DNA of 64,000 nt from a virus (IMGVR_UViG_3300031133_000383:122635-186634), one strand, 5' to 3'. Shown: positions 41,336-44,825, counted from the first letter of the stretch. Notes: generated by a model not told the origin, from the sequence alone. Translations and numbers: made by a program.

Positions 41336-41606
41336 ATGAATTTTATATCTATTTCAATGGAATTGTCTATTATTTTGCACTTTCCCATATCCTTGTATTA
41401 TCAATATAGGTTTATTGACAATCTTAAAAATGACCATTATTCATTTAAAAAATTACTACCATTTTTATTGCTGGTATTAGCTTGTATTGATTTTTATTTC
41501 TTTAAACACTCTTGGTTTTTCCAAAAGTGAATATTTAGCAATAGGTGTTGATGTCAAAGATTTGAGGTCAGAACATTTTGAGCTTTTAAAAATGATACAA
41601 ATATGA
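41336..41606 (+). pseudogene. frameshifted small membrane protein of the MxxPhi family
   Basis: track ORF stops at 41530, but the +1 frame continues ...DLRSEHFELLKMIQI* (TGA 41604-06); removing one T from T5 at 41516-20 gives an 89-aa protein. Confidence 0.6.
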
Positions 41607-41637
41607 TATAATACTAAAAATTAAAGGTAAATAAATT

Positions 41638-42189
41638 ATGTTGGAATTCGTAGAAGAATTGATGATAGAAAAAGCCAGTCAAGCACCTGAGATCAAAGGG
41701 TTTGATGGAGATTTTCGTTGGTTATCCAATTTTTATCCAATTGAACCATTTGTGTATGATGGTGTAGCCTATTCAACAACAGAAAACTACTATCAAGCCA
41801 TGAAGACACTTGATAAAGCTGAACGTCAACATATTGCTTCATTGCCACCTAACAAGGCTAAACGCTACGCATCTTCCTACAATAAAAAATTTATATGCCG
41901 TGATGATTGGGACATGATCAAGCTAGAAGTTATGGAATATGCTCTTAGACGAAAATTTTCACAGCCGAAGTTTCAGAAATATCTATTGGCTACCCGAGAT
42001 ATTTATATTGAAGAAACTAACGCTTGGGGAGATATCTTTTGGGGCTGCTCCCTAGCAGGCGAAGGAGCCAACAAATTAGGTTTACTTATTCAGAAACTTC
42101 GTACTGAATTACAAGAAGGTCGCGATTTATCGATATATAAACCTGTTATAGCTCCTTTGCTTAAAAAAAAGTTAAAACCCCTACCTTAG
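41638..42189 (+). CDS. NADAR (YbiA-like) family protein, zero-frame product
   Basis: WLSNFY, TENYYQAMK, DWDMIKLEVMEYALRRKF, EETNAWGDIFWG, NKLGLLI. Confidence 0.9.
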   Translation: MLEFVEELMIEKASQAPEIKGFDGDFRWLSNFYPIEPFVYDGVAYSTTENYYQAMKTLDKAERQHIASLPPNKAKRYASSYNKKFICRDDWDMIKLEVMEYALRRKFSQPKFQKYLLATRDIYIEETNAWGDIFWGCSLAGEGANKLGLLIQKLRTELQEGRDLSIYKPVIAPLLKKKLKPLP

Positions 42190-42235
42190 TAGTCAATAAA
42201 GATCTTGAACGCTTTGATGTTTATGTAGGTAGGGG
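42165..42235 (+). other. candidate programmed -1 ribosomal frameshift element
   Basis: in-frame A_AAA_AAG (42165-71), 6-nt spacer, hairpin 42178-42235 with 20 of 24 positions paired incl. perfect CCCCTACCT/AGGTAGGGG. Confidence 0.75.
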
Positions 42236-42500
42236 ATCAAAATTAGGCAATTCTTTTAGTATTCATACTGGTGAATACACACTGGAAGAATCTATATTTT
42301 TACATTCTTATGAGCGTTCAAAGCAATTGGTATTGGATAAAGAATTTAGATCTTATGTCCTTTCAATAAAAGGTAAAACTTTAGGTTGTTTTTGCAAAAA
42401 ACATCGTTCTGATTCTGACTTATTTGCTCTTGACGATACACCTTGCCATGCAGAGTTTTATGCAAATTGGTTAAACTCTTGGGATGAATTTACAGATTAG
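42168..42500 (+). CDS. DUF4326-like domain in the -1 frame of NADAR (no start codon of its own)
   Basis: hand-translated, stop-free 110 codons: VVNK..FDVYVGRGSKLGN..KGKTLGCFC..PCHA; no in-frame ATG; missing from ORF track. Confidence 0.8.
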   Translation, partial: KVKTPTLVVNKDLERFDVYVGRGSKLGNSFSIHTGEYTLEESIFLHSYERSKQLVLDKEFRSYVLSIKGKTLGCFCKKHRSDSDLFALDDTPCHAEFYANWLNSWDEFTD

Positions 42501-42758: not shown

Positions 42759-42840
42759 GCTTAGTTTAAATCTGCTTCAAAACTTTATCAAATGAAAATC
42801 TTGTGTTATAATGGCATTATATGTTAAACAGGATTTTTTT

Positions 42841-43851
42841 ATGAAACTATATAGGCTAGATGCCATTCGTAATTTCGTTGTCTCAAAATTCAACAAGTCT
42901 GAGACTACTCCAGAGACTCGGAAAGAGATTGCAGATTTCTTTTCTCCAAATTATATGATTGATCGTCATGAACTTAAAAATGTATTCTTTGAAAATCATT
43001 ATATGACTTCATTTTTATTAGAAGAAGATATTATTTTAAAACATATCTTGAATTTTAATCTCAAATATAATCAAAACATCAGTTTCAATAAAATTAATCG
43101 TTTTTCAAGTCACTTTGAAGCGACAGATTTTCATACCTATCAAAATCATTCATTTCCTGTCAATTATCAAGCACTGGTTGAGAATCATTACACCAATGAA
43201 AATATTCAAAACTTGGTTTTACTCAAAAAAGAAGCCATCAAACTTGACAAAGAGCGTAAAACTTATTTCCAATCTGTAATGGTTGAAGATTTTCCTAACA
43301 ACTTAAAAGATTCTCGTATTCTCTCATTGGATTTTGAGTACAGTAATGATCATATTTATGAATTCGGTATGAGTATATTCAACAAAGATAAAATCGTTGA
43401 TAAATATTTTATCACTAATTTAAAAACAGGAACAAGAGCCAACCAATTCCAATTCAATTTTGGAGAATCTACAATTGTCCCCATTGACAAAATGGTTAAC
43501 ATGCTTAGACAACAATTGTCACAAGCAGATTATTTACTTTTGCATGGTGGGTATAATGATATTGCATTACTTAATAGATACAATATTGAGCTTGACGAGT
43601 ATCCCAATATTAAAATTATCGATACGTATCACTTATATCCGAAGTATTTTAATAATAATAGCCAATCTAACTCAACGCTTGTCGATTTATTGAATCGTTT
43701 CAATGTTGAACATACACACCTGCATAACGCAGGCAATGATGCTCATTATACTCTAGAGATGCTGTTGGAAATGGATAAAGCCATAAATTCCAATACCGTT
43801 ATAGTAGAAAATGACAACAAGAAAAAAATAAGATCTTCTCAAAAAATATGA
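42841..43851 (+). CDS. DEDDh exonuclease, paralog 2
   Basis: LDFEY, HGGYND, HNAGNDAHYT; start 42841 chosen because paralogs begin MKLY. Confidence 0.8.
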   Translation: MKLYRLDAIRNFVVSKFNKSETTPETRKEIADFFSPNYMIDRHELKNVFFENHYMTSFLLEEDIILKHILNFNLKYNQNISFNKINRFSSHFEATDFHTYQNHSFPVNYQALVENHYTNENIQNLVLLKKEAIKLDKERKTYFQSVMVEDFPNNLKDSRILSLDFEYSNDHIYEFGMSIFNKDKIVDKYFITNLKTGTRANQFQFNFGESTIVPIDKMVNMLRQQLSQADYLLLHGGYNDIALLNRYNIELDEYPNIKIIDTYHLYPKYFNNNSQSNSTLVDLLNRFNVEHTHLHNAGNDAHYTLEMLLEMDKAINSNTVIVENDNKKKIRSSQKI

Positions 43852-44825
43852 AATTATATAGAATTTGTTCAATTAAGGATATCTTCCTGAAAGATTTACC
43901 CACTGCAAAAAGAAAAGAAGCCGCTACATTCTTTCATTTGGAAAATCTATATTCAAATGTTCATCTAAAACATATCTATATGAGCAAAAATCATATCAAT
44001 TCTATTTTAATCGATGAAGATGGTTTATCTAAAATTCAACTTTTGACAAAATTGAAGTTTGGCGTTACTCCCGATATTGATGACATAAGAAATGAAGCTT
44101 GCCCTTTTAATGTAAACACAATTGACAAGTTCACAGTAAATGAACCCGGACAAGTGACTAATATCATCAAAAATCATATGAAACAGGATCATATTCAAAA
44201 AATAATACACCTTAAAAAAGAAGCGTTACGTGAATCAGCTATTAAAAAAGAAATTCTACGTTCAAAAATCTATAATGCACATGATAAAGATTTTATCAAT
44301 AAAAAGACGGTTTCAATTGATTTTGAATATATTAATTTGAATGTATTTGAACTAGGCGTTTCTGTTCACGAAAACGGCATAATTAAGAATTATCATTATT
44401 TGATAAAAGAAAATTATATTCATAAAAAGACAAAGCCTGATTTACAATTTAAATTCAAATTTGGTCAAACTGAAATTATTCCAGAAACAATGATGTCATC
44501 TATTATAAAGCATCATTTAAATAATGCTGACTACTTGCTGTTACACGGTCATAGTAATGATTATTTAATTTTAAGAAAGTATGGTTTAGATTTGGAACAA
44601 GAAGAAAAAATAAAAATCAAAGATACTATTTTATACTATAAAAAATATTTTGAACCCGAACAAGGTGATGCACTGACACTTCAAAAGATGCTGAGAACTT
44701 TCGATATTAAGCCTATCAATATGCACAATAGTGGTAACGATGCAGCATTTACAATGGAACTGTTCATTGAGATGCATAAACGTGTTGAGATTGCATCCAA
44801 GAAGATATACAAACCAGTTGCTTGA
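43848..44825 (+). CDS. DEDDh exonuclease, paralog 3
   Basis: IDFEY, HGHSND, HNSGNDAAFT; ATGA overlap with paralog 2. Confidence 0.8.
   Translation: MKLYRICSIKDIFLKDLPTAKRKEAATFFHLENLYSNVHLKHIYMSKNHINSILIDEDGLSKIQLLTKLKFGVTPDIDDIRNEACPFNVNTIDKFTVNEPGQVTNIIKNHMKQDHIQKIIHLKKEALRESAIKKEILRSKIYNAHDKDFINKKTVSIDFEYINLNVFELGVSVHENGIIKNYHYLIKENYIHKKTKPDLQFKFKFGQTEIIPETMMSSIIKHHLNNADYLLLHGHSNDYLILRKYGLDLEQEEKIKIKDTILYYKKYFEPEQGDALTLQKMLRTFDIKPINMHNSGNDAAFTMELFIEMHKRVEIASKKIYKPVA

Follow-up and report, generated by a model that had tools for sequence, protein, structure and literature searches.

A probable −1 ribosomal frameshift links NADAR to DUF4326 in an uncultured jumbo phage and its relatives

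Results

The window analyzed here is a stretch of 64,000 nucleotides, bases 122635-186634 of a 437-kb IMG/VR virus record (IMGVR_UViG_3300031133_000383; GC 30.9%, completeness ~98%). Its source is an uncultured jumbo phage. The junction region that we describe spans positions 41638-42500 of the window and belongs to a syntenic block with the gene order DUF2201/vWA protein, two small open reading frames (ORFs), NADAR, a small ORF, and two DEDDh-exonuclease-like paralogs. These tandem paralogs (42811-43851, 346 amino acids; 43848-44825, 325 amino acids), whose counterparts in syntenic relatives carry Pfam DEDDh_C, keep their synteny with the NADAR locus in most relatives. The features of the region are as follows.

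41585..41612, plus strand: candidate sigma-70-like promoter 5' of NADAR (TTTAAA, 16 nt, TG-TATAAT; 10 of 12 matches in a consensus scan)
41638..42189, plus strand: zero-frame ORF for a YbiA-like NADAR enzyme (P0001; Pfam), 183 amino acids, ending in KKKLKPLP
42162..42164, plus strand: TAA of the −1 frame directly 5' of the heptamer, closing that frame
42163..42170, plus strand: homopolymer run of eight A (A8), without indels in the contigs of three runs
42165..42171, plus strand: slippery heptamer A_AAA_AAG, in the X_XXY_YYZ phase of the NADAR frame (zero-frame codons AAA AAA AAG)
42165..42500, plus strand: start-less −1 frame ORF with a DUF4326 domain (Pfam, dN/dS), 111 codons plus a stop at 42498-42500
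42172..42177, plus strand: spacer of 6 nt between heptamer and stem
42178..42235, plus strand: candidate stimulatory stem-loop of 58 nt with a perfect 9-bp base (folding)
42187..42189, plus strand: zero-frame stop TAG, five sense codons past the heptamer

The −1 frame is closed by the TAA at 42162-42164, and a shift is thus possible only between 42165 and 42189. The −1 ORF has no ATG, GTG, or TTG before 42327. The computed trans-frame product, a NADAR-DUF4326 protein, has 287 amino acids. An earlier, sequence-only reading of this DNA had proposed the heptamer at 42165-71, a 58-nt hairpin six nucleotides downstream, an open −1 frame that lacks a start and encodes a DUF4326-like domain, and two products, a 183–amino acid NADAR and a fusion of about 287. 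Each of these proposals agrees with what we find: an A8 run read as AAA AAA AAG, 20 base pairs on a perfect 9-bp base, 111 codons with a Pfam DUF4326 match, and products of the predicted sizes. The promoter is a weak candidate, as the consensus scan matched the region no more often than it matched shuffled sequences. The single RNA run found, metatranscriptome X14, has contigs over 41677-41947 only, upstream of the junction.

Three runs have Logan contigs that reproduce the A8 run without indels: the likely source (depth ~318), a dairy metagenome, and one more, the last two with 1 and 4 single-nucleotide polymorphisms (SNPs) of their own. This evidence comes from contigs rather than raw reads, in which form minority A9 variants are invisible. 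The recurrence of one assembly artifact in three data sets is unlikely.

In the crude ATG-to-stop gene set of the 437-kb phage, the longest ORF encodes 779 amino acids, which is unusually short for a jumbo phage and may reflect split genes or the crude ORF calling. ARAGORN detects 26 tRNAs in the genome. Among its calls outside the window are a tRNA with anticodon CUA, of the amber-suppressor type and labeled “Pyl” (genome positions 375947-376020), and a tRNA-like gene with the four-base anticodon “agaa” and an undetermined amino acid (389162-389237), which may decode quadruplets, be a degenerate tRNA, or have been miscalled. Given the CUA tRNA and the TAG that ends NADAR, we considered a recoding of TAG. 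We rejected it because coding density across the genome is unchanged with TAG as sense rather than stop (0.816 versus 0.811) and because the zero-frame continuation is not conserved.

The zero-frame product matches the Pfam NADAR family (PF08719) over residues 26-159, with 66.6 bits against a cut-off of 35.1 (E = 4e-18). Its closest solved structure is Escherichia coli YbiA (2b3w; E = 3e-16, aligned residues 25-158). The −1 ORF matches DUF4326 (PF14216) over its residues 11-97, with 38.7 bits against a cut-off of 25 (E = 1.7e-9), and its Cys-x-Cys and Cys-His residues (C75, C77, C94, and H95) do not vary among 54 sequences. Modeled with AlphaFold (pLDDT 94.5), the −1 ORF has its first strand at ORF residues 8-11, which would leave no room for a downstream start.

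Structural comparison links the DUF4326 model only weakly to other proteins. Foldseek returned no match in the PDB at E up to 0.001. In VIA-align, weak matches were obtained to the NADARs 8bau (Z = 4.7), 2b3w (Z = 3.7), and 8bat (Z = 2.5) and to the C-terminal domain of RapZ (Z = 3.9), with a dual-specificity phosphatase reaching only Z = 2.1; the best matches include neither rhodanese nor phosphatase folds. Although the top structural matches are NADARs, profile-profile comparison assigns a probability of just 0.3% to DUF4326 as a divergent NADAR. DUF4326 has been proposed as a member of the rhodanese-phosphatase superfamily (PMC9503650).

A protein search with the 183–amino acid NADAR recovered 13 further clusters of 183 to 192 amino acids (58 to 80% identity), all of which end a few residues past a Lys run. 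Only two long forms occur among the relatives, P0002 (286 amino acids) and P0017 (285 amino acids), and these carry NADAR and DUF4326 in one frame. P0002 sits in a locus that is syntenic with the window. At the DNA level, nine split lineages were compared together with both fused ones, and a metagenome scan added four more split lineages, the sources being independent assemblies from Logan, ENA, NCBI, and JGI. Two of the lineages lie on contigs far larger than the 437-kb phage: L036 (JGI contig Ga0308158_10000001, 1.86 Mb) and L039 (Ga0247725_1000001, 1.54 Mb), which could be chimeric or concatenated assemblies, or something else. A single run, SRR31860671, contains both a fused lineage (L018, P0002, A10) and a split one (L024, P0005, A7); fused and split forms therefore coexist in one community. 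Scans of IMG/VR with the NADAR protein, the DUF4326 ORF, and a DUF4326 alignment yielded no close relative (matches of at most 43% identity). Phages in GenBank also yielded none, the best match being an in-frame fusion in Erwinia phage UCB24 at 33% identity.

The split layout is conserved in all 14 split lineages, comprising the window and 13 others, which are phylogenetically related, so that the counts given here are not counts of independent events. The 13 others share 54 to 70% identity with the window in the DUF4326 part. In every one of the 14, DUF4326 is intact in the −1 frame and the shift is needed at the same place. The motif AAAAAAG is invariant (14 of 14) and is read in the zero frame as NNA AAA AAG in 13; the junction codons of L027 are AAA AAA AAA G, that is, A_AAA_AAA. 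The A-run comprises six nucleotides in L026, L031, and L040, seven in L022, eight in the window and L032, and nine in the remaining eight lineages. The zero-frame stop always follows the site after four to six sense codons. In four of the lineages (the window, L026, L027, and L032), the −1 frame has a stop immediately before the run, which pins the entry point to the A-run. Trans-frame products across the split lineages measure 285 to 294 amino acids and match the in-frame fusions P0002 and P0017.

Pairwise comparison of the split lineages gives a median dN/dS of 0.21 for the −1 ORF, at a saturated dS of about 1.6 to 2, and a dN/dS of 0.12 for the NADAR part. These comparisons indicate that the −1 ORF is under purifying selection. 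The junction is the part of the gene with the lowest synonymous diversity. In every split lineage, gene callers annotate the 183–amino acid NADAR alone, missing or truncating DUF4326. Thus, the domain is under-counted in phage surveys.

As an internal control, we compared the NADAR site with every other in-frame A_AAA_AAG heptamer in the crude gene set (57 in the 437-kb genome, this one included). It comes first for downstream minimum free energy (MFE; −23.1 versus −18.5 for the next), for the longest Watson-Crick stem starting 3 to 10 nt downstream (9 versus at most 7), and for the length of the −1 ORF as ranked (109 versus at most 45 codons). The heptamer alone is not diagnostic, and the NADAR site is singular among the 57. 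That the 56 other sites are tolerated suggests that the heptamer by itself may shift only weakly in the host. The phage encodes tRNA-Lys(UUU) and no tRNA-Lys(CUU), which fits the known basis of A_AAA_AAG slipperiness. In the 30 nt 5' of the run, inspected in 12 lineages, we saw no conserved GGAG/AGGA-type motif of the kind that serves as a Shine-Dalgarno–like stimulator. Searching 42050-42350 against Rfam at E up to 10 matched no frameshift-element family (e.g., the DnaX element).

The hairpin at 42178-42235 forms 20 pairs, with 42178-42186 and 42227-42235 making up its perfect, GC-rich 9-bp base. Its MFE is −23.1 kcal/mol (z = −3.4), and 1 of 200 shuffled sequences folds as well. When the 9-bp stem is scored over the 14 lineages, 75% of cells pair, versus 28 to 49% with the 3' arm slid by one to three columns, a control that is biased toward the window as the source of the tested structure. 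The covariation score of the stem is reached by 3 of 500 shuffles. The strongest single case is L040 (A6; 56% identity in DUF4326), where an 11-bp perfect stem in the same register includes two compensatory pairs (z = −5.3); the stems of L027 and L031 also still pair despite their different sequences. Codon choice at stem positions is unusual as well: ACC is used in 10 of 11 lineages, compared with 15% of Thr codons genome-wide, and AGG in 7 of 12, compared with 6% of Arg codons. RNAalifold found no consensus structure for 10 junction sequences.

In all six lineages with A6 to A8 runs, the two arms form a duplex of −11.3 kcal/mol or stronger. The duplex is weak (−4.7 to −7.9) in six others, all of them among the eight A9 lineages and placed on three separate branches. 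With 6 of the 14 split lineages thus lacking a strong stem, the stem is not an obligatory part of the signal. We read this as the pattern of a real stimulator that may become dispensable once the run is long, a reading drawn from a small sample of related lineages. The sequence-only reading had looked to homologs for either a kept heptamer with a covarying stem or an in-frame fusion. Both outcomes occur, with the heptamer kept in 13 of 14 and two relatives fused in frame. Conservation of the stem is partial: it recurs with compensatory changes, and its weak versions are all in A9 lineages.

Discussion

We consider it likely, on comparative grounds, that a dnaX/IS3-type programmed −1 ribosomal frameshift allows this gene to make both NADAR and NADAR-DUF4326. 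The characteristic features of such signals are present: a heptamer in phase, a start-less coding −1 ORF, a 3' structure in the window, and a conserved layout. The canonical heptamer, the 6-nt spacer, the GC-rich stem, the position of the site in an inter-domain linker, and the start-less downstream ORF are shared with −1 ribosomal frameshifting in dnaX and the IS3 family (reviewed in PMC5009743). The intact −1 layout, the dN/dS, and the absence of room for a start codon together argue against sequencing error, a recent pseudogene, and independent initiation, and point to expression of DUF4326 by recoding at the A-run. A −1 shift at A_AAA_AAG with a 3' stem-loop was the core proposal of the sequence-only reading, and it now has strong comparative support from the layout in 13 further lineages, from purifying selection, and from compensatory changes in the stem.

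Under the proposed mechanism, ribosomes translating in the NADAR frame would reach the inter-domain linker, where two tRNA-Lys would occupy AAA in the P site and AAG in the A site. A fraction would slip back by one base, aided by the GC-rich stem-loop 6 nt downstream. Unshifted ribosomes would stop five codons on and release a free NADAR of 183 amino acids, and shifted ribosomes would continue in the −1 frame to produce the 287–amino acid NADAR-DUF4326 fusion. The site would thereby set the ratio of free NADAR to two-domain enzyme. Our comparisons show the layout and its conservation, selection on the −1 ORF, and a stem that is partly conserved and covaries; from these we infer that ribosomes rather than RNA polymerase do the slipping, and we likewise infer the efficiency of the frameshift and its function.

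The main rival is transcriptional slippage, in which RNA polymerase adds one A to some mRNAs and standard translation of these yields the fusion. Transcriptional slippage does make fusions in Thermus dnaX and in some IS elements, and jumbo phages may use their own RNA polymerases, with possibly different fidelity. The window has an A8 run and 8 of the 14 split lineages have A9. Runs of this length could support slippage, possibly by a phage RNA polymerase, although the homopolymer length associated with it (~9 or more A or T) is reached in the eight A9 lineages and not by the A8 of the window. The loss of a strong stem in six of the eight A9 lineages is also what would be expected if a long run works without a ribosomal stimulator. 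However, three lineages have A6 runs and one has A7, and known bacterial polymerases do not slip appreciably on runs this short. It is the short-run lineages that have the strongest stems, at a spacing typical of ribosomal frameshifting, and a downstream mRNA hairpin with compensatory changes plays no role in slippage by a polymerase. As an account of the whole clade, transcriptional slippage is therefore unlikely, although it may contribute in A9 lineages.

A second alternative is that NADAR and DUF4326 are two separate genes, the latter being started at a noncanonical codon or by termination-reinitiation past the NADAR stop. Such arrangements have precedents: in the distant phage L008, NADAR is overlapped by a separate DUF4326 gene that has its own ATG, and stand-alone DUF4326 proteins of ~105 amino acids exist. 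We regard this as very unlikely for the split lineages, where the stretch from the heptamer to the first predicted strand contains no ATG, GTG, or TTG and no near-cognate codon that is conserved. No Shine-Dalgarno–like motif was seen, and in four lineages the −1 stop directly 5' of the heptamer ties entry to the A-run.

It is scarcely credible that the gene is decaying, with DUF4326 severed by a recent one-base deletion and left as a pseudogene remnant that gene callers miss or truncate for want of a start: all 14 split lineages, which span the deepest node of the tree, have an intact −1 ORF in which neither stops nor indels were seen, its dN/dS is ~0.2 (at saturated dS), and it retains catalytic-looking invariant residues (two Cys and Cys-His). 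Equally remote is a homopolymer error that hides an A9 and hence a plain in-frame fusion like P0002; the window does derive from a metagenome assembly and its syntenic relative is fused in register by one extra A, but the contigs of the likely source and of two SNP-distinct runs all read A8 without gaps, and the −1 layout recurs in 13 other lineages sampled by many projects, some of them with A6 or A7 runs, which are not prone to such errors. An A9 in place of A8, which the sequence-only reading had named as fatal to its proposal, did not appear in these independent assemblies, judged from contigs.

One element of the sequence-only reading does not hold. It had contrasted a Lys-tailed NADAR with a tail-less fusion as “differently addressed” forms, but both products contain KKK, which is encoded 5' of the shift; they read KKK+LKPLP in the zero frame and KKK+VKTPT... 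in the trans-frame. The four to six residues of the zero-frame tail are not conserved as protein, being LKPLP in the window and SKSQP, RKPQP, NPRP, and others elsewhere. From this comparison, the tail looks like a by-product of the overlapping −1 codons.

We built a maximum-likelihood tree of 16 full-length products (14 split and 2 fused). Each in-frame fusion falls within a different split clade: L016 (A10) is placed beside L021 and L039 (A9), and L035 (A12) beside L032 and L040. This separate nesting indicates that the split state is ancestral for the clade and that the fusion protein is the functional product. The sequences indicate that in-frame fusions arose independently twice, by one-base insertions. 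The nearest NADAR outgroup checked, P0018 (172 amino acids), has no DUF4326 downstream, and this comparison therefore does not reveal how the layout originated.

In the A10 fusion of L016 (5525-5560), the +1 frame still encodes the former short tail, KKKSKSQP followed by a stop. The loss of one A in the transcript, or a shift, would regenerate the short NADAR, and fused lineages may still make both products.

It is possible, if doubtful, that two recoding solutions are interchangeable in this clade. Lineages with A6 to A8 runs would use a selected stem; those with A9 would have let the stem decay on three branches, relying instead on a more slippery run or on transcriptional slippage; and those with A10 or A12 would have fixed the fusion. 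If this is true, the phage clade is a natural series of frameshifts that have been tuned, replaced, and resolved. Selection would then have set the ratio of short to long forms of an anti-defense enzyme lineage by lineage, and the phage tRNA-Lys(UUU) might modulate it. More broadly, the family offers a natural series of NADAR alone, separate genes, frameshift-coupled genes, and fused genes, with a possible trade-off between run length and stem strength.

NADARs of several subfamilies remove ADP-ribose from DNA guanine by hydrolysis, and those of phages (AdfN) defeat the DarTG1 defense (PMC11543638, PMC11125620, PMC11825919). For DUF4326, which occurs in jumbo phages in repeated fusions with NADAR, Macro, and SLOG domains, a role in processing ribose-linked phosphates has been predicted (PMC9503650, PMC7824862). 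Judged from this published work, the likely function of the products described here is the removal or processing of ADP-ribose adducts or their derivatives as a counter-defense. The frameshift may thus set the dosage of a counter-defense enzyme pair in giant phages.

Fusions of NADAR and DUF4326 have already been noted by Iyer et al. in 2022 (PMC9503650) and 2021 (PMC7824862). In-frame phage fusions (P0002 and P0017, and that of Erwinia phage UCB24) have the same domains, order, and linker, with 285 to 286 amino acids. Ordinary translation of these gives only the fusion, whereas the form in the window can also release free NADAR. Our literature searches on frameshifting in NADAR or DUF4326 and on jumbo phage frameshifts returned no report of a frameshift in phage NADAR or DUF4326 genes.

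A close parallel is E. coli dnaX (tau/gamma), which has the identical heptamer A_AAA_AAG, tRNA-Lys(UUU), a stem-loop ~6 nt downstream, and two products in a fixed ratio. The two differ in outcome: the dnaX shift leads to a stop almost at once and hence to a shorter protein, whereas the NADAR shift adds a whole domain. They also differ in that dnaX has an upstream Shine-Dalgarno–like stimulator, of which none was seen at the NADAR site. Such a stimulator is present in dnaX and IS911 and is not obligatory. No Rfam frameshift element matched, which makes the NADAR site an analog of the dnaX element rather than a homolog.

The site also resembles OrfAB of the IS3 family (IS911, IS150, and IS3), which also combines A_AAA_AAG with a 3' structure and has a downstream ORF without effective initiation of its own. 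There, too, the shift fuses two modules, and the unshifted product is shorter and, in the IS3 family, functional alone. The difference lies in the setting, with transposases of bacterial mobile elements in one case and an ADP-ribose–processing pair of uncultured jumbo phages in the other. The tail chaperone gpG/gpGT of phage lambda is likewise a conserved phage −1 shift that adds a C-terminal extension, in a layout that is kept where the sequence diverges. Its heptamer, by contrast, is G_GGA_AAG, it needs no stimulatory structure, and its role is structural rather than enzymatic.

The mechanism proposed here is of a known kind; what is new is the gene family, together with its natural series of states. 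To our knowledge, apart from dnaX, IS elements, and tail chaperones, few genes of bacteria or phages have a conserved programmed frameshift. Each new conserved case is a test bed for the rules of recoding, and that of NADAR sits in an ADP-ribose–processing module.
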